Part shown: positions 1-11,566 of the stretch, piece after piece
Numbering within the stretch: the first letter of the stretch is position 1
How the letters are laid out: every line of letters begins with the position of its first letter
Source of the DNA: Abditibacterium sp.
GTDB lineage: Bacteria; Armatimonadota; Abditibacteriia; Abditibacteriales; Abditibacteriaceae
DNA: 64,000 bases
Direction: 5' to 3'
NCBI GenBank assembly: GCA_965199495.1
Contig: CBDASK010000003.1
Location: 64,001-128,000 of the forward strand
The notes under the pieces: model-generated
Seen by the model: only the letters and a program-made list of their open reading frames with translations
What the model was told of the DNA's origin: nothing
Databases searched by the model: none
Translations under genes and position numbers: made by a program

Positions 1-2736
1 AGCCCCAACGCGATGCAGAAAGTGTTGGGCAACGCCGTTTCGTGGCGCGGCATCGCCGTCGAAAGCGCCGATTTCCAATGGCACAACGCGCCCGCAGACG
101 TAAAAATCCGAGGCTATCGTCCGTCTTCAAAGCCGACAAAAACAGTGGATTCGTGGGTTGCTTATGTGCTTCCGGCCCATTCCGAAACTCTGGTTTTCAT
201 CAACGATCTGGGCTGGGACAAAAGCGCGACCTCGCGCATTGCCGAACTTCAACGTACGTCGCCGTTCACCACCGCGTTCGTTCTGAATTTCGCGGACGAC
301 GCCGCGCGCGCCACGTTTTTCCGCGAACAAAATTTCGAGACCGTTCCGACGCGTTTGATTTCCGAACTGCCCAAACCGGCGCGCGCCATCGGCACGCCGC
401 ACGTCAGCAACCGCACAGCGTTCGATGCGCAATTGCATCAAATCCAGGCGCCATCGGGCGGTGTGGCGGCGTCGTTCGCTGCGGGCGATGACGGTTCGGA
501 TGCCGACTTTGAGAATCTGAAAATTTGGGCGCGCGCCGCGCCGCTCGACGCGAAAAATTGGCCCGATTTCAAGCGATTGTATAAAGCCATCGAAGCGCGG
601 TTGTGGCCGCCGATGGGCCGTTTTCGTTGGGACGCAACCGAAGCCGATTTCGCCGCGACGCCGATTCCGAGTGAGCGAGATTTGGAATTGTTGGGCGTTT
701 TGATGGGCCGCTTGGACGAACACAACGCGCAACGCGGCGCGGGCCAACCCGTCGCGCCGCAACCGACGATTGCGCAATGGGCTTTGAGTGCCGTTAGCAA
801 TTTAGTCGGTCGCCCCAATGCAGCCACGGCGAGCGGGCCAAGCGCCAACACGCTTGCTTATATGAAGCGGCGCGCGACGAAATTATTGACATTTTTGCGC
901 GGTAACCAAGATTTGTCCGAGCGACGCCGCCATGCGCTCGCGCCTTTGGTTTGTGGCCTATTGCAACGCGATAAATGTCTGGATATTTCGGAGACTTTGG
1001 TGGGGCGTTTGAAGTTGGGCGAAACCGAGGTTTTGGCCGCTCATCCCGCAGCGATTGCGCGCGTGTGGGCGAATATAACGGTGCCATTGACCATCGCGCG
1101 TTGGTCTTACGATTGGCTGGAAGAACACCAACAAATTATCGAGGTTTCGCCAGTGCAGTTGCGACGCTTTGTCGAGTTGCCCGATGTGAATTGGACGCTG
1201 AAACTCGCGCCCGCCGCGTTGCAAAAAGATCAGATTTGGCCGCGCGATTTTGGTTTGCGAGATTTTTCGCGCGTCTTGCAGGGCAACGCGCAAAATATGA
1301 CGAACGGCGTTTGGGTCAACACGCAATTTTTGCAGCGACGCGACGAAATCGTGAATTTATTCGCGCGTTTCCCGCAACTCGAACTTGACAAACGTTGGTT
1401 GCGCGATTCGATTTCGCAGGTCAGTGACGAAATCACGCTCGATTGGCTGGCGCCGTGGCTGAACGAGTGGGCGCGCGACGGCGAGTTTTCGCTGATCGAA
1501 AAAATGTCGCCCGACCTGCAAAATCGCTTCAACACGGCAATTGTCGCGGTTTTTTCGCAGGGATTATCGCTGGAAAAATGGCGAGAACTCACGAACGCGC
1601 CGGAATTGTTGCCATTGCTGGCGCCCGCGCTCCAACAAATGTCGATTTCGAGTAAAATCGCCGATTATATTTGGTCGTTGCCCGCCGACAAACGCGATCC
1701 GATTTTGAGAGCATTGGAAGAGAATCCGGCGTTGTTACCGATCATCGAAGACCACGCGCGCCGTTTGGATTGGGCGTTCATCGCGCCACTTTCAGCAGTG
1801 CAATGGGAATGTTTCGCGCGGACAGTGTCCGCGACTTTTCCCGACGGAATTAGCGCCGACGATTGGGCGCAAATCGCCGAATTACCGTTTGAAGCGGGCC
1901 ACAAATTTTTGCCATTGGGCACCGGATTCTGGCAGTTTGTTTTGCCGCTTGAAAGCGAAAATCGCGCGCGGTGGATCGCGCGCGTCGGAGCAGAGCGCGC
2001 GAGTCGCGAGTTCGCCAGCCAAAGCGCGGCGATTTTCGAGGAATTGCTCGATTCGGATGAGACGGGTTTGGACGAATTGGGCGACGCGTGGCTCGATGCA
2101 CAGTTGTCGCAAATCGCGTTTGATAGCGAACTCATCATTAAATTGGCGCAAAGCAACGTTTCGGATTGGCAAGCGCGCGCGTTGTCGCATTTGCGTTCCG
2201 CCGAACTGCGCTTGCCGGTGGCTCTTCGTCTGATGGAAAGCGAACTGCCGATTTTGGAGCGTGTGGCCGCGCCGTTTTTCTCGGACGAAAACAAGAACTG
2301 GAGCGAGCGTGTTCTGGCGCTCGCCGATTCGCCGAAAATAGCGGCGCGCGCCCTCGCATTGCAATTGTTGGAAGAATTTCCCCGGCGTTGGACGCCCGAT
2401 TTGTTGCGCCAGTTGGCGCAGCACGATGACGCGGGCATTCAAGCGTTTGTCGCGGCGCAATTGAAAAATGCGCCCGCTAAAGTCGTCGAATCCAAGGCGA
2501 TTGAAACGTTCGATAGCGCGATAATTAACGCGCGCGGGCGAGGGCGACGGGCCAAAGAAAGCGTGAAAGCGCGCGCGGGTAAGTTTGACCGCGAAACGTT
2601 GCTCGAAGCCGCGCGCAACGGCGCGCCGCGCGACCGCGAATGGGCACTGCGACAATTGGTTCTGGCGTCATTGGCGGGCGAGAACGTCGAAGGATTAGAT
2701 GTCGCGGGCGCGTTTGCGAAGGCGGATTCGCGATAG
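1..2736 (+). CDS. Large alpha-helical HEAT/ARM-repeat-like protein, probable retron type XIII accessory protein; probably 5'-truncated by the window edge
   Basis: The frame is open from base 1 (first ATG at 13). The Leu/Trp-rich helical C-terminus (ADSPKIAARALALQLLE...LLRQLAQHDDAGIQAFVAAQL...RGRGRRAKESVK) resembles ARM/HEAT proteins found next to SWIM and RT genes. Co-oriented with both. Confidence 0.6.
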   Translation, partial: SPNAMQKVLGNAVSWRGIAVESADFQWHNAPADVKIRGYRPSSKPTKTVDSWVAYVLPAHSETLVFINDLGWDKSATSRIAELQRTSPFTTAFVLNFADDAARATFFREQNFETVPTRLISELPKPARAIGTPHVSNRTAFDAQLHQIQAPSGGVAASFAAGDDGSDADFENLKIWARAAPLDAKNWPDFKRLYKAIEARLWPPMGRFRWDATEADFAATPIPSERDLELLGVLMGRLDEHNAQRGAGQPVAPQPTIAQWALSAVSNLVGRPNAATASGPSANTLAYMKRRATKLLTFLRGNQDLSERRRHALAPLVCGLLQRDKCLDISETLVGRLKLGETEVLAAHPAAIARVWANITVPLTIARWSYDWLEEHQQIIEVSPVQLRRFVELPDVNWTLKLAPAALQKDQIWPRDFGLRDFSRVLQGNAQNMTNGVWVNTQFLQRRDEIVNLFARFPQLELDKRWLRDSISQVSDEITLDWLAPWLNEWARDGEFSLIEKMSPDLQNRFNTAIVAVFSQGLSLEKWRELTNAPELLPLLAPALQQMSISSKIADYIWSLPADKRDPILRALEENPALLPIIEDHARRLDWAFIAPLSAVQWECFARTVSATFPDGISADDWAQIAELPFEAGHKFLPLGTGFWQFVLPLESENRARWIARVGAERASREFASQSAAIFEELLDSDETGLDELGDAWLDAQLSQIAFDSELIIKLAQSNVSDWQARALSHLRSAELRLPVALRLMESELPILERVAAPFFSDENKNWSERVLALADSPKIAARALALQLLEEFPRRWTPDLLRQLAQHDDAGIQAFVAAQLKNAPAKVVESKAIETFDSAIINARGRGRRAKESVKARAGKFDRETLLEAARNGAPRDREWALRQLVLASLAGENVEGLDVAGAFAKADSR

Positions 2737-2973
2737 GTTTCGGAACTGGCATTGAACCATGAAGCGCCTCTGACTCACACCCCCTCTGACTTCGTCATCT
2801 CCCCCTCCGAGAGGGGAAGAATGCCTCATTAGGGTGAAGAGCTTACCTGGTAAATACGAAGCGGCGAAAGTTAATTCGGCATTCTTCCCCTCTCGGAGGG
2901 GGAGATGACGAAGTCAGAGGGGGTGTGAGTCAGAGGCGCTTCATGGTTCAATGCCAGTTCCGAAACCTATCGC
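2730..2973. repeat. Perfect inverted repeat with 96-bp arms (2730-2825 / 2878-2973) and a 52-nt loop; REP/CIR-like core
   Basis: Arms read as exact reverse complements. The left arm includes the upstream TAG stop. The core ccccctctgacttcgtcatctccccc contains a small TGAC-TTC-GTCA hairpin. Confidence 0.95.
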
Positions 2974-2987
2974 CAGGAAAATTTATC

Positions 2988-4703
2988 ATGGAAATCACAC
3001 AATCTTACGCCACGCCTTCGACCGCGCAGCCACGCGGCGACGGTCTGGGTTTTTCGCTTTCGACCGAGGCCGCGCGGCCCGGCGTGCATCTCGAAGCTCT
3101 GGTCAAAAAATCGCGTTCCTACGGGCGCGTGATGCTCGCTTTACACCGCGTCGTTGCGGGCGACGCGCGTTTTCAAGAAGCCGATCATTCGGCCTATCAA
3201 GCGTGGGTGCGCGGCCAATATCTGCTCGAATTGGCGCAAGACCAGAAGCAATTGCAACAGAAATTGCCCGCGTTACAGCAGGAATTGGACGAGATTAAAA
3301 CGCAATTGCAACCGCTCGACACGCGCTCAAACGAACTTTATCTGGAACTGCAAAAGTTGGGGCGCGAGGGCAGCAAATCGTTTTACGAGGCTCAGCGCAA
3401 CTACTGGCAATATCTCTATCGCGCCGATAAAGCGTTATGGTGGGTTTTGGATCCGGTGGTTTCGGTTCATCCCGACGCCACGCTTTTCGAGGTGTTTTCG
3501 CGCGACGAATCGAGTTACGGTTGCGTGCGCGTGCCGACCAAAAATCTCGATGTTGTGGGCGACGTGGCTTATGGCACGACGAACGTGGATTATTCGCAAG
3601 CGTTGGCCAACGAAATGGCGCGCGTGCGCGATTACAGACGCGCATGGTTGGGCGTTGGACAAACGGGCATCAGCGTGGCGACGACGGCGGGCGCGCGCGT
3701 TGAAAAGAAGATTGATTTGCCGCCTTCTTGGGTGCGCGGCTTTTTGCAAGTCCAAAGCGCGAGCGCGTTGGCGACGATAAATTTGTCATTGTCGGCCACC
3801 GTCGTCGCCGAAATTTTGCGAGTGTTGAATGCACGCCGCGAAGACAAAGGCCCGCGCTCGCTGAAATTCGATTTAAAACCGGGGCAGTTGCCGACAATCG
3901 AAATCGAACCGTGGGGCGAAATCGTGCGCGAAACGCAGTTTAAATATGCGGGAAAAACCGCGCAAACCGTGCGGATTTGGGGACGGCGGCGCTTATCGGT
4001 TTTGAGCGAAATGTTGCCGCACGCGCGCGAAGTCGAGGTGCGCTTGCTGGGCGACGGCTTGCCGTCGTTCTGGGCGTTGGAACTCGAAGGCCATCGTTTC
4101 GAGCTGGGTTTGTCGGGCTGGACGACCAACGATTGGAGCGCCGCCGCGCGTTTCGATGCGCTCGCTTCGAGCAGCCACGTCGGCGACGAACTGTTGAAGA
4201 CGGCGGCGCGCGAGTTAGAAAAGGCGCTGATTTTGACGCCGGTTCAACTCGCCGAAATCACCGATTCCAATCGCGCACAGGCGACGAGTGCATTGCAAAA
4301 GCTATGCAGTCAGGGCCGCGCGATGTGGGATTCGGTGATTAAATCGTATCGCTGGCGGCAACTGTTGCCGTTCGCGGCGCCCGAAACGCCGCTCGATACC
4401 AAAGCGAAATCGGCGGTGCGTTGGGTTGAAGGCGGCAAAGTGAAAGTCGCTAAAGTTGACGATAAAGAAATCGAAAAAGACGATTTCTTGAAGCGTTACA
4501 ACGCGCCCGATGTTCAGTTTTGGGCGGCGGAAGTGAACTCGGAAGGCGGCCAGTTTAATCCGTTGTGGGCCAGCGACGCCGATGGTCGCGTGAAATTTTG
4601 GCAATGCACCTGCGGCGAGTTTCGCCGCGACAAAGGGCGCGGCGGGCCGTGCGCGCATTTGCTGGCGGGCTTGGGACAGGTCGAAGCGGAGGGAAAACGA
4701 TGA
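2988..4703 (+). CDS. SWIM zinc-finger protein (571 aa)
   Basis: C-terminal CxC..CxH motif CTCGEFRRDKGRGGPCAH; conserved blocks LDPVVSVHPD, FEVFSRDESSYG, TTNVDYS, EKKIDLPPSWVRGFLQVQSA. ATG at 2988 follows AGGAAA; the longer ORF start at 2925 lies inside the palindrome. Confidence 0.85.
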   Translation: MEITQSYATPSTAQPRGDGLGFSLSTEAARPGVHLEALVKKSRSYGRVMLALHRVVAGDARFQEADHSAYQAWVRGQYLLELAQDQKQLQQKLPALQQELDEIKTQLQPLDTRSNELYLELQKLGREGSKSFYEAQRNYWQYLYRADKALWWVLDPVVSVHPDATLFEVFSRDESSYGCVRVPTKNLDVVGDVAYGTTNVDYSQALANEMARVRDYRRAWLGVGQTGISVATTAGARVEKKIDLPPSWVRGFLQVQSASALATINLSLSATVVAEILRVLNARREDKGPRSLKFDLKPGQLPTIEIEPWGEIVRETQFKYAGKTAQTVRIWGRRRLSVLSEMLPHAREVEVRLLGDGLPSFWALELEGHRFELGLSGWTTNDWSAAARFDALASSSHVGDELLKTAARELEKALILTPVQLAEITDSNRAQATSALQKLCSQGRAMWDSVIKSYRWRQLLPFAAPETPLDTKAKSAVRWVEGGKVKVAKVDDKEIEKDDFLKRYNAPDVQFWAAEVNSEGGQFNPLWASDADGRVKFWQCTCGEFRRDKGRGGPCAHLLAGLGQVEAEGKR

Positions 4704-6133
4704 GCGATTGGCGCAAACAAATCAAAGAACTGGGCAAACGCGAGTTTCAGCGGCGCGAAATGGAACGGTTGGGTTTCTGGCCGCCGCCCGCGCAGGGTTC
4801 CGACCAAGCGCGCGATGTGCAAAGCCAATTGAGCGCGCTCAACGTCGAAATGCGCGCCGTGGCTGATCGTAGTCGGCCCCTGCGATTGCGCGAAAATCAA
4901 ATCGAAAAAGAATTGTCCGAAGCGGGCAATCTCGAAGCGCAACTCGCCGAAATTCGGCGGCGCCGCATCGAACGCGTTAAAGCCGCGCGATTGGAAAAAC
5001 GCGCGCGCCGCGAACGCGAAACCGTCGAAAAACGCGCGCGCGACCAGCAATGGCGCGCCGAGAATCTGCCGTTTTTAGGACGCGGCGTCTCCAAACGCCT
5101 GAACTTTGCCGAGCCGTCCGACGCCACGAAACTGGGCGAAATCGGATTGCCGGTTTTGAACAATCCCGCCGACGTGGCTGCTCTGTTGGAAATCACGATT
5201 CCGCAGTTGGCGTGGCTCTGCTATCATCGCGAGGCGGCGCCGATTGACCATTATTCGCGCTTCACGATTCCAAAACGCAACGGCGGATTGCGCGCGATTT
5301 CGGCGCCGCGACCGTATTTAAAAGCGGCGCAAACGCGCATTTTGCGCGCGATTTTGGAACTCGTGCCGCTTCACGAGGCGGCGATGGCGTTTCGGCCCGC
5401 GCGCAATATCGGCGATAATGCGATGATTCATTCGCACGCGCAAAGCGGCGGGCCAGCCGTTATTTTGCGCGTGGATTTGAAAGATTTCTTTCCGTCTATC
5501 ACTTTCAAACGCATCGCCGGAGTTTTCGCGCAATTGGGCTATAACGGCGGCGTTGCGACATTGCTCGCGCTGATTTGCACCGAACCGCCGCGCGTCGCGG
5601 CGACGCTCGACGGACAGACCAGCCACGTCGCGTTGGGCGCGCGCTTTGTGCCGCAGGGCGCGCCGACTTCGCCCGCCTTGACCAATATTTTGTGCCGCCG
5701 ATTAGATTCGCGATTGAGCGGTATGGCGCGCGCCTACAATTTTAATTACACGCGCTACGCCGACGATTTGGTGTTTTCTTCGACCAAAGGCGCCGATGCG
5801 ATTCATCTAAAAAATGGCGTGATGCAAATTTTGGAAGACGAAAATCTTGCCGTCAATCCCGATAAAATTGATTTCGCGCGGCGCGGCCAACGCCAGAGCG
5901 TGACAGGTTTAGTCGTCAACGGTGAGCGTGGCCCGCGCCCGTCGCGGCGCGATTTGCGGCGGTTTCGCGCCGTCATGCACGATATTGGGTGCAATGGCGC
6001 CGATGCGGTTTCCGAGAAAATGGGTCAGAGCGCGCTGTGTTGGGCGCGCGGTTATCTGGCGTTCGTGCAGGGGTGCGCGCCCGAAATCGCGAGCGGTTTG
6101 CGCGAAAAATACGCGAGTGTTTTGACGGTATAA
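4700..6133 (+). CDS. Retron-type reverse transcriptase (477 aa) with an N-terminal coiled-coil extension
   Basis: IPKRNGGLRAISAP, NAMIH (retron NAxxH), DLKDFFPSI, PQGAPTSPALTN, YTRYADDL, QSVTGLVVN (retron VTG). ATG at 4700 overlaps the SWIM stop codon (ATGA). Confidence 0.93.
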   Translation: MSDWRKQIKELGKREFQRREMERLGFWPPPAQGSDQARDVQSQLSALNVEMRAVADRSRPLRLRENQIEKELSEAGNLEAQLAEIRRRRIERVKAARLEKRARRERETVEKRARDQQWRAENLPFLGRGVSKRLNFAEPSDATKLGEIGLPVLNNPADVAALLEITIPQLAWLCYHREAAPIDHYSRFTIPKRNGGLRAISAPRPYLKAAQTRILRAILELVPLHEAAMAFRPARNIGDNAMIHSHAQSGGPAVILRVDLKDFFPSITFKRIAGVFAQLGYNGGVATLLALICTEPPRVAATLDGQTSHVALGARFVPQGAPTSPALTNILCRRLDSRLSGMARAYNFNYTRYADDLVFSSTKGADAIHLKNGVMQILEDENLAVNPDKIDFARRGQRQSVTGLVVNGERGPRPSRRDLRRFRAVMHDIGCNGADAVSEKMGQSALCWARGYLAFVQGCAPEIASGLREKYASVLTV

Positions 6134-6141
6134 TCTTTTCT

Positions 6142-7356
6142 ATGAAATTCACGGTTTTCATCGCCAGCATTTTGGCGTTCGCCGCTCCCATTGCTCACGC
6201 GCAGGATGCGTCTAACGTCAACGGCTATAGCGCGTTAGTTGAGGCCGGAAAACTCATCATGCCCGATGCCAGAGACGAAATGCGCGACCTCGTGCCGCCC
6301 GCCGAAAATCTGGCGCGCCAAAGGGCATCGGTTGAGCGCAATGCAATCGCGTTGGTTTTAGCGCGCGAGGCGTTGGCGCAACCAATTACGATCCCTGCGC
6401 CTGAAAGTCCGCAGAATATCAGCGCAGAAAGTCTCATAGATTTTCAAAAGTTAGCGCGCCAATTTCTCGCGGAATCAGACGTGCGCTTGGCCAATAGTGA
6501 CGCGGCGGGCGCGCTCGATTCGCGTTTGACGATGCTGCAACTCGGTCGTGCCACCGCGCATGATGCGCCTTACACTCACACGCTGGTTGGCCTGAGCATC
6601 GAAGGCATGGCGCGCAAAAACATCGAGTTCGTCGCGGCCCGGTTGGATGCGCCGCAAATTCGCGCGGCGCTGATTCGATTGGATTCGATCAACGCACAAA
6701 GCACAAATTTAGTCGCCGTTCTAAGAGTCGAGAAACCGTCAACGCTACGAGCCGTCGGCGCGGCGTTATCCGCCGTCACGCCGCAAGACTTGAACAAATC
6801 AAAGGCCATACTCGCGACACCCGAAGGCCGCCGTGAAGCCGGGCTTTCGGACGAAGAGGCCAAACTTTCCGTCGAGTTGTTAGAAATGAACGCGGAATTG
6901 GTCAAAGCGAAAATTGGCGAGGCCTTCGATTTTTATATCGCGCGCGCAGACTTACCCTATCAACAATCGCTTTCCAATTTCCCCAACCCCAACCCAGCGA
7001 CTGACGTGTTTTCAGACAAATTTAAAGATCCGCTAATACGCTTTGTTTTTGAGCGCAATCGCGTTAACAATGATTGGCTACGCGCCGCGCTCGAACTGCG
7101 CGCCATCCAACTGGAAACCGGCCAATATCCAGCGAGTTACGACGCCGGAACCGATCCGTTTTCTTTCCCCACTGCGTCCTACATTTACCGGCGTGAAGCC
7201 GACAAATATCTGCTTTATAGCGTCGGGCCTGACGGCAAAGACGAGGGCGGCGCCGAAATTCAGACGCTGCAAACCAACTCGCAAACCGGAGTCAATAGCG
7301 TCAATAGCGTTTTGAACACCAACTCGCTCGGTGACATCGTTGCCCCAATATTTTAG
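6142..7356 (+). CDS. Secreted hypothetical protein with a C-terminal GspG-like tail
   Basis: Signal peptide MKFTVFIASILAFAAPIAHA; C-terminal DPF...YLLYSVGPDGKDEGG; TATAAT 7 nt upstream of the ATG. Confidence 0.7.
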   Translation: MKFTVFIASILAFAAPIAHAQDASNVNGYSALVEAGKLIMPDARDEMRDLVPPAENLARQRASVERNAIALVLAREALAQPITIPAPESPQNISAESLIDFQKLARQFLAESDVRLANSDAAGALDSRLTMLQLGRATAHDAPYTHTLVGLSIEGMARKNIEFVAARLDAPQIRAALIRLDSINAQSTNLVAVLRVEKPSTLRAVGAALSAVTPQDLNKSKAILATPEGRREAGLSDEEAKLSVELLEMNAELVKAKIGEAFDFYIARADLPYQQSLSNFPNPNPATDVFSDKFKDPLIRFVFERNRVNNDWLRAALELRAIQLETGQYPASYDAGTDPFSFPTASYIYRREADKYLLYSVGPDGKDEGGAEIQTLQTNSQTGVNSVNSVLNTNSLGDIVAPIF

Positions 7357-7363
7357 CACGATA

Positions 7364-9421
7364 TTATCCGCCGACGTGAACGCGCGGACGCCGCGCCGGA
7401 TCAGGTTCGGCTTCGCGCAAAACTTCGTGGGTGACGGGCGGCACGTCGCCCTGACCGAAGACGATGTAGTTGAAGATGTAAACCAGCGGATTGCCTTCCG
7501 TCCACGCGAAATAAACGTGGGGAATGACGCCGGTTTCGTCGCGAATGCGCAGCATCAAAGCGGCGATGGCGTTGGGCACCGTCGTGGCGTAAACGCGCAA
7601 AATTTGAAAGCCGTGACGTTCTTCGCCGCGCACGTTGATGGCGCCCGAAAAGTTGGAGGCGTCCACAACCGTCACTTCGAGAAAGATAATCGGGTCGCCT
7701 TCGGGAATGTGATTGTTCTCACGCTTTTCCAATTCTTTCTCGCGATATTCGGCTTCGTCGCGCGCGCCGGGATGGTTGGCGACGATGCGGATGTGGCCAC
7801 GCGCAGCCTGCTCGATAATTTCCTGCGCTTTAGTATCAATGTTGAACTCTTCGGCGCGCAGTTCGGTGGTGCGATAAACGCGCGATAACAGCGACAACGC
7901 TACGATGCCCGCGATGAAAATCAAGGCGATTTTCAGGCCGCCCGGATCGTCGCGGATGGTGACGGCGGTGGTATAAACGAAAATCGCGCACACGATGCCA
8001 AAACCAATCATCATTTTGGTCTGGCCCGCGCGTTTGGCGCTCATCGTCACGGCGACGGTGGCTGATGTCATCAACGCCAAAACGCCCGTCGCGTAGGCTC
8101 CGGCCTGCGCCTCGACATCGGCGTGAAAGGCGATGGTCACCAGAAAACAGATGCCGGTAAATATCAGCGTGAGCGGGCGCGTGGCGCGCATCCATTCGGG
8201 CGCCATGCCATAGCGCGGCAGATAGCGCGGCATGATGTTCAAAAGCCCGGCCATCGCCGAGGCGCCCGCGAACCACAAAATGCAGATCGTCGAGATGTCG
8301 TAGGCGGTACCGAAACCGTCGCCGAAAATATCGTGCGCCATGAACGCGAGCGCGCGCCCATACGCTTTGCCCGCTGGTTGCGCGGGCACGGCTTCCTGCG
8401 ACTGAATTTCGGGAGTGGTTTCGGTGCGCTCTTGAAATTCGATGGCGGGTTGCGCGAGTTGAGGCGCCTCAAACTCGGCGGGCGGCACGTAAAGCGTGGT
8501 GACGATCGCCGACAAAATCAGCATCACCGACATGATGCAGGCCGCCAACGTCAGTAGTTTGCGCGCGTTGCGAATGCGGCCCGTCGGCTTGTTTTCGTTG
8601 TCGTCGGGATCGCCCTGAATCAATGGCATCACCACGACGCCGGTTTCAAAGCCCGAAAGCCCCAACGCCAAACGCGGAAAAACCAAAAGCGAGGCGCCAA
8701 ACATCGCCAGATAGCCGGAATGTTCGGTAAAAAGTCGCGCTTTCCAACTGGAAATCAGCGCCGGATGATGGACGATCTGCAAGAAGCCACCGCCAATCAC
8801 CACCAAGTTCATCAGGATGAAAACGATGACCAAGGCGACCGCAATGCCGATGGCTTCGCCGAAACCTTTCAAGAAAACCGCGCCCAGCAAACTAATAAGA
8901 AACAGCGTAATCAACACGTTTTCGCCGTGCAGAAACGCGGGCGCGAACGGATTCTCGACGACGTGCGCCGCCGCGTCCGCCGCCGACAAAGTGATGGTAA
9001 TAATGAAACCGGTCGCCGCGAAACCGATGAGGGCCAGCACGAACATTTTGCCCTGCCACCATTTCAGCACGGTTTCGAGCATCGAAATCGAGCCGTCGCC
9101 GTGCGGCGATTCGTAGGCCACGCGCCGATACATCGGGAGCGCGCCGAACAGCGTCAAAATCACCAGAATCAGCGTGGCAAACGGCGCGAGAGCGCCCGCC
9201 GCCAGCGCCGCAATGCCCGGCTGATAACCCAATGTAGAAAAATAATCCACGCCCGTCAGGCACATCACTTTCCACCACGCGTGCGTATGTTCGACTTTGG
9301 ATTCGGAAATGCCGGGGCCTTCGTGCGTGCCGTCAACACGATGAGAGCGAGGGCCATCGGGCGAATCGTGTTGCGCGCTGGGCGAATCGGCTTGCAGTAA
9401 CCACTTACTAAATGCGGACAT
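7364..9421 (-). CDS. APC-superfamily permease (amino acid or KimA/YdaO-like cation transporter), paralog 1
   Basis: About 12 hydrophobic segments; motifs [15 protein letters not shown] and [12 protein letters not shown]; soluble C-terminal domain. Confidence 0.8.
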
Positions 9422-9532: not shown

Positions 9533-11566
9533 TTATCCGCTCACATGAATCATCGGGCGGCGTTCGGGAATCGGCTCGGCTTCGCGCAACACTTCGTGGG
9601 TGACGGGCGGCACATCGCCCTGACCCAAAAACAGATATTTGATCAGGAACAACAGCGGGTTGCCCTCGCTCCATGAGAAGTAGGCGTGCGGCATTCCGCC
9701 CGTTACATCGCGAATATGCAGTAGCAACGCCGCGATGGCGTTGGGCACTGTTGTCGCGTAGACACACAGAATTTTAAAGCCGAAACGCTCTTCGCCGCGC
9801 ACTACAATTGCTCCGGCGAAATCGGACGCGTCAACGACGGTGACTTCGAGAAAGACAATCGGATCGTCTTTGGGAATGTGGTTGTTTTGGCGTTTTTGCA
9901 GTTCTTTGCGGCGATACTCTTCCTCAGTACGCGCCCCCGGATGGTGCGCGATCATGCGAATATCACCGCGCGCCGAATCGTTGATAATTTCCTGAGCTTT
10001 GTCGTCGAACTTGAACTCTTCGACGCGCAGTTCAGTCGTGCGATAGATGCGCGAAATCAGCGAAACGACGATGATGGCGCCGATGAAAATCGAGGCGATT
10101 TTAATGCCTTCGGGCCGCTCGATGATGTTGTCTGCCGTCGTATAAAAGAAGACGAGCGCGATCAAGGCGAACAGCGCGGTTTTGAGTTGGTTGCCCTTCT
10201 TCTGGACGGCCAACGTCACGGCAAAGGCCGCGCTCGTCATCAAAACCAACACGCCTGTGGCATAGGCGCCGCCCTGCGCATCAACGTCGGCCTGAAATAT
10301 CCACGTCACGATAAAAGCGATGACCGCGAATATCAAAACCAACGGTCTGGTCGCCCGCGCCCAATTGGGCGCCATGCCATAGCGCGGCAGATAACGCGGC
10401 ACGACGTTGAGCAGTCCGGCCATCGCGGAGGCGCCCGCGAACCACAAAATGCAGACGGTCGAAATGTCGTAAACCGTGCCGAAACCTTCGCCCAGATATT
10501 GATGCGCCATATAAGCCAGCGCGCGCCCGTTGGCTTTGCCCGCCGGAGTTGGCGGCACGGCATCCTGCGCCAAAATTTCGGGTTGCGTGTCGGTGGCTGC
10601 CTGATAAGCGATGGCCGGGCGCCCCGGATCGGCGGCGGCAAATTGCTCGGCGGGAATCAAAAGCGTCGTCACCAAACTGCTCAAAATCAGGTAAACGCTC
10701 ATAATTACCGCGACAGTCGTCAGCAGTTTGTGCGTATTTTTAATGCGCCCGACCGGATTGGATTTGGTATCGGTTGCATCGCCTTTGACGAGGGGCATCA
10801 CCACGACGCCGGTCTCGAAACCCGACATGCCCAGCGCGAGTTTGGGGAACAACAGCAGCGAAACCCCCAGAACTGACAAGATATTGGGATGGGGCGCCGC
10901 AAAAATCGCGCTTTTCCACGCGGGCCAGTGCTGCGGCTCGACCGCGATGTGATACAAACCCACACCGATGACCGTCGCGTTGAGCACCAGAAACACGCTG
11001 ACCAAAACGACGGCGATGCCGATGGCCTCTTTGAAACCTTTGAGAAAAACGCCCGCCAAAATCGCGACCAAAGCCAGCGTGATGCCCACGCTATGTTCGC
11101 GCGCCAGATGCGCGGTAATGGGGTTTTCGACGATGTGCGCCGCCGCGTCCGCCGCCGATAAAGTGATAGTGATGATGAAATCGGTCGCCACGAAGCCCAG
11201 CAAAACCAAAACGAACAGTTTGCCGTTCCACTGCGGCAACAGCCTTTCGAGCATCGCGATGGAGCCTTCGCCGTGCGGACTTTTCTCGGCGACTTTTTTA
11301 TACATCGGCAGCGCGCCGAATAAAGTGAGCAAAACCAGAATCAACGTGGCAAACGGCGACAAAGCGCCCGCCGCGAGGGCGGCGATGCCGGGCTGATAGC
11401 CCAAAGTCGAGAAGTAATCCACGCCCGTCAGACAGCCGACCTGCCACCACGGGTGAGTGTGGTCGTGGGCCTGCTCTTCGGAGATGCCGGGGCCTTCGTG
11501 AATGCCGTCGCGGTTGTGATCAGACGAGGAATCTTGTTCGAGGAGCCAGTGAGAAAGTGCGGACAT
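9533..11566 (-). CDS. APC-superfamily permease, paralog 2
   Basis: Same motifs, collinear with 7364-9421 over the full length. Confidence 0.8.

Follow-up and report, generated by a model that had tools for sequence, protein, structure and literature searches.

A type XIII retron operon of Abditibacterium that includes a WGR-PARP gene

The left end of a 64,000-nucleotide stretch of an Abditibacterium sp. genome (the window, G000:C3:64001-128000, where G000 is the source genome) was found to hold the 3' part of a type XIII retron operon that includes a gene for a WGR-domain poly(ADP-ribose) polymerase (WGR-PARP). The left window edge cuts the locus, and the operon extends 3.9 kb further left, where the noncoding RNA (ncRNA) and the PARP gene are located. 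From left to right, and all on the plus strand, it comprises a promoter, an msr-msd RNA, the WGR-PARP gene and the genes for a HEAT/ARM-repeat protein (ARM), a SWIM protein and a reverse transcriptase (RT). These elements form a conserved cluster whose parts persist, change site and disappear together. The PARP very probably belongs to the retron operon. There is about an even chance that this PARP is the regulated anti-phage output of the retron, consuming nicotinamide adenine dinucleotide (NAD). The type XIII retron itself is already catalogued, and the PARP-bearing form of the operon (the variant) is the new part. No PARP-bearing retron was found in the literature searched, from which the supplement of PMC7736814 and subscription journals were outside scope, and a term search of PMC13712802, covering its main text and 8 supplements, gave 0 hits for 'PARP'; the supplement rows inspected there list at most four domains per locus.

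Assignment to the type XIII retrons

The RT (477 aa, window 4700-6133, plus strand) matched the PADLOC model RT_XIII with 462.6 bits, the next RT model reaching 295.2, and contains the NAxxH, YADD and VTG motifs. A first-pass annotation made from the window letters had read these motifs correctly; they were located as NAMIH at residue 240, YADD at 353 and VTG at 401. The N-terminal extension with EMERLGFWP that it described is real, since the Pfam domain RVT_1 begins only at residue 190. The adjacent SWIM gene (window 2988-4703, plus strand, 571 aa from the ATG) matched SWIM_XIII with an E-value of 1.9e-157 and overlaps the RT gene by the ATGA at 4700-4703, as annotated. Its product contains the acidic motif Dx7Dx4Ex30-32Dx37E, a winged helix at residues 399-462 and a CxCx12CxH SWIM finger formed by C540, C542, C555 and H557. 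The ARM scaffold gene (plus strand, 1289 aa) lies upstream of SWIM; it starts at G000:C3:62867 and its 3' part occupies window 1-2736. The C-terminal part of the protein is the HEAT/ARM region of type XIII, in which residues 1047-1233 match the PADLOC model WGR_XIII (E 3.5e-8), and it is 33–39% identical to the C-termini of ARM proteins from type XIII loci of the ordinary form. The three co-oriented open reading frames of the first-pass annotation were thus found at 1-2736 (open at the window edge), 2988-4703 and 4700-6133; the first of them is only the last 911 of 1289 residues, the true start being 1134 nt left of the window.

By sequence, the locus is a type XIII retron that fits the definition of Mestre et al. 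(PMC7736814). The first-pass annotation had proposed this membership and a PADLOC run to check it; the RT_XIII, SWIM_XIII and WGR_XIII matches, the conserved synteny and the location of the predicted ncRNA bear it out. The right boundary that it placed behind the RT gene was also upheld, because a -10 box (TATAAT, 6129-6134) spans the RT stop codon 7 nt 5' of the ATG at 6142 and because the downstream DNA differs among the three chromosomal sites described below. Its picture of a three-protein system without a toxin domain is incomplete, as an intact WGR-PARP gene lies between the ncRNA and ARM, left of the window. Extending the contig leftwards, which it had suggested, yielded a promoter and the ncRNA; the ARM N-terminus has no WGR domain, and WGR was found on the separate PARP. 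A WGR domain at the ARM N-terminus (cluster 216_1) is the majority form of type XIII and not an obligatory one. Pfam detected none in the ARM protein P0001, nor in any of the four ordinary ARM proteins of the phylum that were scanned, and the idea that the PARP replaces a WGR domain lost from ARM was dropped on the latter ground.

All trees were built with FastTree only and without a monophyly test. In a tree of 48 RT stretches, limited to those of 250 aa or more and rooted on the divergent G071, the seven variant RTs formed one clade (support 1.0), whose sister group is made up of the phylum's ordinary type XIII RTs (support 0.997). Type XIII includes the myxobacterial retrons, which were the first retrons described. 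It is among the most widespread retron types, with 143 of 1,286 candidates (PMC13712802), and in the literature covered no effector or output has been demonstrated for it. The known members (RT clade 10; Retron-Mxa1/Mx162, Mxa2/Mx65, Sau1/Sa163 and Nex2/Ne144; PMC7736814) share with the present locus the RT type, the SWIM protein with DEDE motif, winged helix and CxCx12CxH, the upstream HEAT/ARM gene and an msr-msd RNA with a long hairpin. Unlike them, the present operon has a WGR-PARP gene between the ncRNA and ARM, an ARM N-terminus that consists of a PARP-neighbour domain and a dead rIIA region, and a SWIM protein without the BRCT domain of its relatives; none of these three differences is described for type XIII in PMC7736814, its supplement not being covered.

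The leader of the operon is well supported as the retron RNA by sequence comparison and folding. It comprises 390 nt between a near-consensus promoter and the WGR-PARP gene. The promoter is of the sigma-70 type (TTGACA-17-TAAAAT, 11 of 12 matches) and lies left of the window on the plus strand at G000:C3:60079-60107, in a region that was aligned in the relatives; G000:C3 denotes contig positions, and in the locus numbering L001, in which C3:60079 is L001:10079, it corresponds to L001:10079-10107. The ncRNA follows on the same strand at G000:C3:60120-60399 (L001:10120-10399) and contains an a1/a2 stem, two msr stem-loops and an msd hairpin of about 50 bp. The predicted multicopy single-stranded DNA (msDNA) is about 165–175 nt long, and the predicted DNA strand folds with a z-score of -14.7. 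Seven genomes have kept the outer a1/a2 stem followed by an invariant GGCA, the two msr stem-loops and the hairpin of about 50 bp. The sequence of the hairpin varies among them and its pairing stays, with compensatory changes at 59 of 102 consensus pairs; as the genomes are related and other processes may make hairpin arms alike, the covariation counts as structural support and not as proof of msDNA. No matching family was found in Rfam, which gave only sub-threshold hairpin matches. A profile of the ncRNA, using sequence only, matched just 5' of ARM in 5 of 17 ordinary type XIII loci of the phylum (E<=1e-5), and all seven upstream regions of ordinary loci that were folded showed the same ncRNA layout by eye. 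Because the ncRNA directly precedes ARM in the ordinary loci, the ancestral order would be ncRNA-ARM-SWIM-RT, which places the PARP gene inside the operon.

The source genome also contains a second, ordinary type XIII retron with two tandem msr-msd units upstream of ARM (L043:13540-14200; C3 ~1,625,500-1,626,200, minus strand). The type XIII retron of G046 (L035:8890-9500) likewise has two tandem units, and the hairpin sequences of the units differ. A further SWIM_XIII-matching gene that lacks at least the first 100 model positions was seen in G125, G151, G084, G156, G155, G033, G161 and G162.

Conservation and loss of the operon

The PARP (P0002) had matches in 8 of the 28 genomes of the order, all in the source genus. 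It was intact in seven of them and always located between the ncRNA and ARM in this operon (7/7), and the short variant SWIM protein was found in exactly the same seven. PARP, ARM, SWIM and RT lie on one contig in six genomes; in G155 the operon, and within it the PARP, is divided between the ends of two contigs, and ARM and SWIM are interrupted, possibly by decay or by an assembly error. In five other genomes the gap between PARP and ARM measures 87–322 nt and that between ARM and SWIM 24–111 nt.

The operon is patchy within the genus (7 of 13 genomes), and by its flanks it occupies three chromosomal sites, one in G000 and G134, one in G072, G084, G151, G155 and G156, and one in G125. G134, the eighth genome with a PARP match, has at the G000 site the promoter, an ncRNA without its hairpin and a PARP remnant of 81 residues (residues 53-133), followed by the next housekeeping-type gene. 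Since G134 keeps these remnants and nothing else of the operon, the system was lost there as a unit.

The PARP, the scaffold and their phage relatives

The PARP gene, the candidate effector, encodes 437 aa at G000:C3:60502-61815 (plus strand, left of the window). Its WGR, PARP_reg and PARP domains all scored above the Pfam cut-offs, and the YGR motif and the triad H316-Y351-E419 are kept, so that it has the three domains and the H-Y-E triad of a bacterial WGR-PARP; the triad is present in all six variant PARPs taken from genomes. The ratio of nonsynonymous to synonymous substitution rates (dN/dS) was 0.04–0.09 in four pairs, and in two of the four the PARP had the lowest dN of PARP, SWIM and RT. 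Judged from these residues and ratios, the PARP has kept its catalytic site and is subject to strong purifying selection. In architecture, YGR motif and H-Y-E triad it is like the bacterial and phage WGR-PARPs Herpetosiphon HaPARP, C. difficile CD160 CdPARP and the phage XacN1 protein BBA65562.1; unlike those, for which no retron link is described in the portions covered, it lies inside a retron operon. In vitro, DNA activates WGR-PARPs with this architecture (PMC5966428, PMC8120803), and the activity of bacterial PARPs in vivo is poorly documented (PMC8120803).

In a midpoint-rooted tree of 58 PARP sequences, 26 of them from the 157 hits of one PARP search, the variant PARPs grouped with P0146 and with the PARP of phage G416 (49% identity) at a support of 0.987, apart from the other PARPs of the phylum and from those of Polyangiales. 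The WGR-PARP was most likely acquired by a type XIII retron from a large phage; as the tree is midpoint-rooted, the direction from phage to bacterium is an inference. PARPs are present in a few jumbo phages (PMC7824862). G416 is a 221-kb IMG/VR phage record, a linear contig, and carries relatives of the PARP, of the small domain at the ARM N-terminus and of rIIA. Its small-domain gene directly follows the PARP gene, with DUF2828 and macrodomain genes next (L118:10001-16874); the DUF2828 protein we take to be Ro60/TROVE-like. Its rIIA is intact and was the best of five virus records against the profile of the ARM rIIA region (E 9.7e-58 vs 8.6e-31 or weaker). Of 39 PARP loci, 3 had an rIIA gene in the flanking DNA retrieved, two of these apparently representing a single phage, and no adjacency of PARP and rIIA was found in phages FBKp34 and XacN1 nor in 14 viral loci.

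Several observations concern these sequences apart from the operon. At the other end of the G416 contig the intact rIIA is followed by a probable rIIB, judged by eye (L144:4465-7579). P0147 (ENA) is a PARP without two catalytic residues and P0009 (ENA) an ARM protein that ends after the rIIA region; the two are possibly one decayed or mis-assembled copy of the operon. P0146 and P0014 (both JGI) may lie on one contig, as far as their equal numbers indicate.

The front of the ARM scaffold is made of two added parts. Residues 1-87 form a small helical domain with 62–83% identity among the variants against G000 and a dN/dS of 0.04–0.32. Its family comprises 116 cluster representatives, most of which are small proteins, and the family profile matches ARM 1-87 at 99.6%. 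The domain looks winged-helix-like, and many of the stand-alone relatives shown presumably have an AbrB-like C-terminal part, both as judged by eye. A relative of the domain was located beside or near the PARP in 8 of 39 PARP loci (E<=1e-5) and in three more weakly. This pairing spans at least three PARP clades and includes chromosomal pairs without an adjacent retron. The scaffold of the retron has thus been joined by fusion to a domain that recurs beside PARPs. Neither viral contigs nor annotated phages gave useful matches when searched for the small domain, PHROGs gave hits for 0 of 25 of its stand-alone relatives, and an Atlas search gave scores of 0.77 only. A complex model of the PARP with ARM 1-87 scored 0.33 against 0.01 for the best control. 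Among reference complexes, 116 of 157 solved pairs and 2 of 215 mismatched ones reached the mark, but at scores of 0.60 or less only 18 of the solved pairs did so, along with both mismatches. The runs agreed in at least 0% of contacts and the partner had a predicted local distance difference test score (pLDDT) of at least 69. The model gives weak support to a binding of the PARP to ARM 1-87.

Chromosomal pairs of a PARP with a small-domain/AbrB-like gene and without an adjacent retron were seen in G103, G130, G121, G087 and G040 (L137-L140, L142) and belong to two PARP clades. Such pairs could be an undescribed toxin-antitoxin or autoregulated pair.

The second added part, ARM residues ~105-505, matches phage rIIA (phrog_612, E 5.8e-18), and its predicted structure has a GHKL/rIIA/Hsp90-like fold, with Foldseek matches to rIIA (E 4e-27) and TRAP1/Hsp90 (E 1e-14). 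Three ATPase motifs, the N box, G1 (DxGxG) and the G2 lid, are intact in both phage rIIA proteins aligned, and all four aligned retron proteins have lost the Asn of the first, the Asp of the second and the ATP lid itself. The sequence therefore indicates that the rIIA-like region is ATPase-dead, with fold and frame kept. At 32–44% identity against G000 it is the most divergent part of ARM, also in three of the four pairs, and its dN/dS was 0.13 and 0.44 where measurable. T4-type rIIA proteins likewise have GHKL/Hsp90-like N-terminal and middle domains over about 400 residues; here, in difference from them, the ATP-binding motifs are lost and the rIIA C-terminus is replaced by the retron ARM region. 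No rIIB gene was found among the operon open reading frames.

A region that lost its ATP-binding residues and kept its fold is what would be expected if the phage-derived parts were baits, with the PARP, small domain and dead rIIA region mimicking counter-defence proteins, capturing their partners (e.g. rIIB) and triggering the ancestral core. The description of rIIA as a counter-defence GHKL protein (PMC7824862) is in keeping with this explanation. The PARP itself is not degenerate, as its triad is intact and its dN/dS is below 0.1, and for the system as a whole we regard the bait explanation as very improbable. It fits the rIIA part, and is compatible there with the PARP as effector.

The clamp-fold SWIM protein and the proposed output

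Residues 33-380 of the SWIM protein were predicted to form a PCNA-like two-domain fold (Z 20.2, rmsd 2.9 over 231 residues aligned to 3aix_A), the fold of a sliding-clamp subunit, with a Foldseek E-value of 1.7e-8; the model was built from 44 sequences and had a pLDDT of 81.7. A long helical hairpin at residues 83-146 of the model is a coiled-coil insert in the clamp fold. The acidic residues D155, D163, E168, D201 and E239 are invariant in the 44 aligned proteins and would sit in this PCNA-like fold and not in the RNase H-like fold of a transposase. An origin from a transposase is disfavoured by this; the residues may nevertheless be catalytic. Ordinary SWIM relatives end in a BRCT domain (2/2 scanned), which the variant SWIM protein lacks.

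Mestre et al. (PMC7736814) proposed the SWIM DEDE protein as a putative nuclease. It could be the real effector; the PARP would then be a passenger, or a separate cassette making use of the operon's promoter. The invariance of the DEDE residues favours this explanation, as does the fact that most type XIII loci have no adjacent PARP and that pairs of PARP and small domain occur without a retron. Set against it are the clamp fold in which these residues are predicted to sit, the fusion of the PARP's neighbour domain to the retron scaffold and its conservation (dN/dS 0.04–0.32), and the movement and loss of the PARP together with the other genes. We consider a passenger PARP unlikely.

For the PARP as output, the following course is proposed. 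A type XIII retron would have gained the WGR-PARP, and the usual neighbour domain of the PARP, together with a dead rIIA ATPase, would have been fused to the front of the ARM scaffold. The RT would copy the msd into a hairpin msDNA, and the PCNA-like SWIM protein and the ARM scaffold would hold this hairpin and its single-strand/double-strand junction, with the PARP docked via ARM residues 1-87 and kept off. A DNA end would become exposed to the WGR domain once a phage protein cleaved, altered or unloaded the msDNA, or bound the rIIA-like bait. The PARP would then consume NAD+ and ADP-ribosylate its targets, and the infected cell would be arrested by abortive infection. Hydrolysis of NAD+ is a known retron output, as the effector of Retron-Eco1 hydrolyses NAD(P)+, and msDNA has been described as a sensor for effectors (PMC12673091). 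Retron-Eco1/Ec86 (type II-A) is therefore alike in the proposed logic of an msDNA-controlled, NAD+-consuming effector; it differs in being a three-part system with an N-glycosidase effector, compared to a PARP, a clamp-fold protein, a large scaffold and a different RT clade here.

If the proposal were true, bacterial PARPs would have a biological role and a defence operon would have been built from phage-type genes. The variant gives type XIII an enzyme with a simple read-out (poly(ADP-ribose) (PAR) blot, NAD+ level) and an obvious control, an active-site mutant, and what type XIII retrons do thereby becomes directly testable. A wider form of the proposal, in which a retron turns phage counter-defence genes on phages through an msDNA-gated PARP, a captured-domain tether, a dead-rIIA bait and a PCNA-like clamp and in which type XIII generally acts via ADP-ribosylation, is put forward tentatively and as falling short of an even chance. 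On this wider form, which draws on the Polyangiales locus and the co-occurrence in trans described below, the first-found retron group would act through ADP-ribosylation, as a bacterial counterpart of PCNA/BRCT/PARP break sensing.

A link of type XIII to ADP-ribosylation outside the source genus was seen in a Polyangiales metagenome-assembled genome, in which the gene order is PARP-macrodomain-ARM-SWIM-RT, with an ADP-ribosylglycohydrolase gene next door on the opposite strand (L065:1530-11091). Its PARP is 24% identical to the variant PARP, and its PARP and RT fall in other clades. Among 251 genomes of that phylum, SWIM_XIII was found in 32 and the PARP family in 4, and all four have both. 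The RT tree shows these four to be closely related, and the genes form an operon in a single one of them; in the others they lie ~11 kb or 85 kb apart or on a different contig. In the source phylum, with 151 genomes, the PARP was found in 11 and the RT in 21, and 10 genomes have both; outside the source genus the PARP and type XIII genes are not adjacent. The co-occurrence is a lead, weakened by kinship. Further type XIII retrons of the Polyangiales group (L084, L094, L148) likewise have genes for a PARP, a macrodomain and an ADP-ribosylglycohydrolase inside or close to the operon; in L148 a PARP-macrodomain pair lies away from the retron.

The same components could instead serve a domesticated signalling of DNA damage or replication stress, in which break-sensing by RT-msDNA, a PCNA-like clamp, BRCT/WGR domains and PARP would produce a reversible PAR signal and no phage killing. 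This would agree with the predicted clamp fold (Z 20), with the BRCT domain on both ordinary SWIM proteins scanned, with the PARG and macrodomain genes of the source genome and the housekeeping flanks of the locus, and with the co-occurrence in trans, as, outside the genus, the RT is present in 6 of 7 genomes with the PARP compared to 17 of 144 overall (kin, and not independent). The patchy presence, the deletion in G134 and the three chromosomal sites resemble conflict genes more, and the added parts have phage relatives and include a fast-evolving rIIA region (32–44% identity, vs 62–83% for residues 1-87). A damage-signalling role is judged improbable.

The following points weigh against the PARP as a phage-derived effector of the retron. 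None of the 17 ordinary type XIII loci of the phylum has an adjacent PARP (three of them reach a contig end), and only 1 of 21 type XIII loci fetched from the phylum of G165 has an in-operon PARP; the core therefore works, or did, without a PARP. The inheritance of type XIII is described as largely vertical (Mestre et al., PMC7736814). The source locus lies amid housekeeping-type genes, and no integrase or other defence gene was recognised by eye in its flanks. Between PARP and ARM the source genome has a thioredoxin gene, a repeat and two weak terminator-like sites, and elsewhere it encodes PARG and three macrodomains, which fit reversible signalling as well as killing. At 28 of 39 PARP loci, many of them short or duplicate contigs, no small domain was found even when weak E-values were admitted, and since its stand-alone form carries an AbrB-like part the domain may be a DNA-binding regulator and not a PARP-binding module. 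The rIIA of G416 lies at the opposite contig end, at least 9.5 kb from the PARP pair, and capture as one block is thus not shown.

The remaining features of the source genome are minor. The thioredoxin-like gene (C3:61892-62446, left of the window) and a dispersed repeat come after the PARP gene in G000 only and are outside the system. The bacterial PARG gene adjoins a macrodomain gene at G000:C3:4086611-4088556, far from the PARP. Unlike the leader hairpin, which is single-copy in the genome, two other long palindromes nearby are dispersed genomic repeats and were rejected as retron RNA: one upstream of ARM, and one with 102-nt arms at window 2730-2973 (no strand assigned), for which blastn found 87 pieces in the genome, self included. 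The ARM-SWIM gap of the five other genomes is only 24–111 nt. Such dispersed repeats, similar to repetitive extragenic palindromic elements or miniature inverted-repeat transposable elements (REP/MITE-like), were seen at window 2730-2973, L001:12492-12627, and L043:7480-7790 and 9760-10020. Their palindromic arms run on with near-perfect pairing into unique flanking DNA, at 2730-2973 into the last ARM codons. To the right of the operon, two tandem paralogous membrane genes, which we take to be amino-acid-permease-like, lie on the minus strand at window 7364-9421 and 9533-11566 and are likewise present beside the deleted site in G134.

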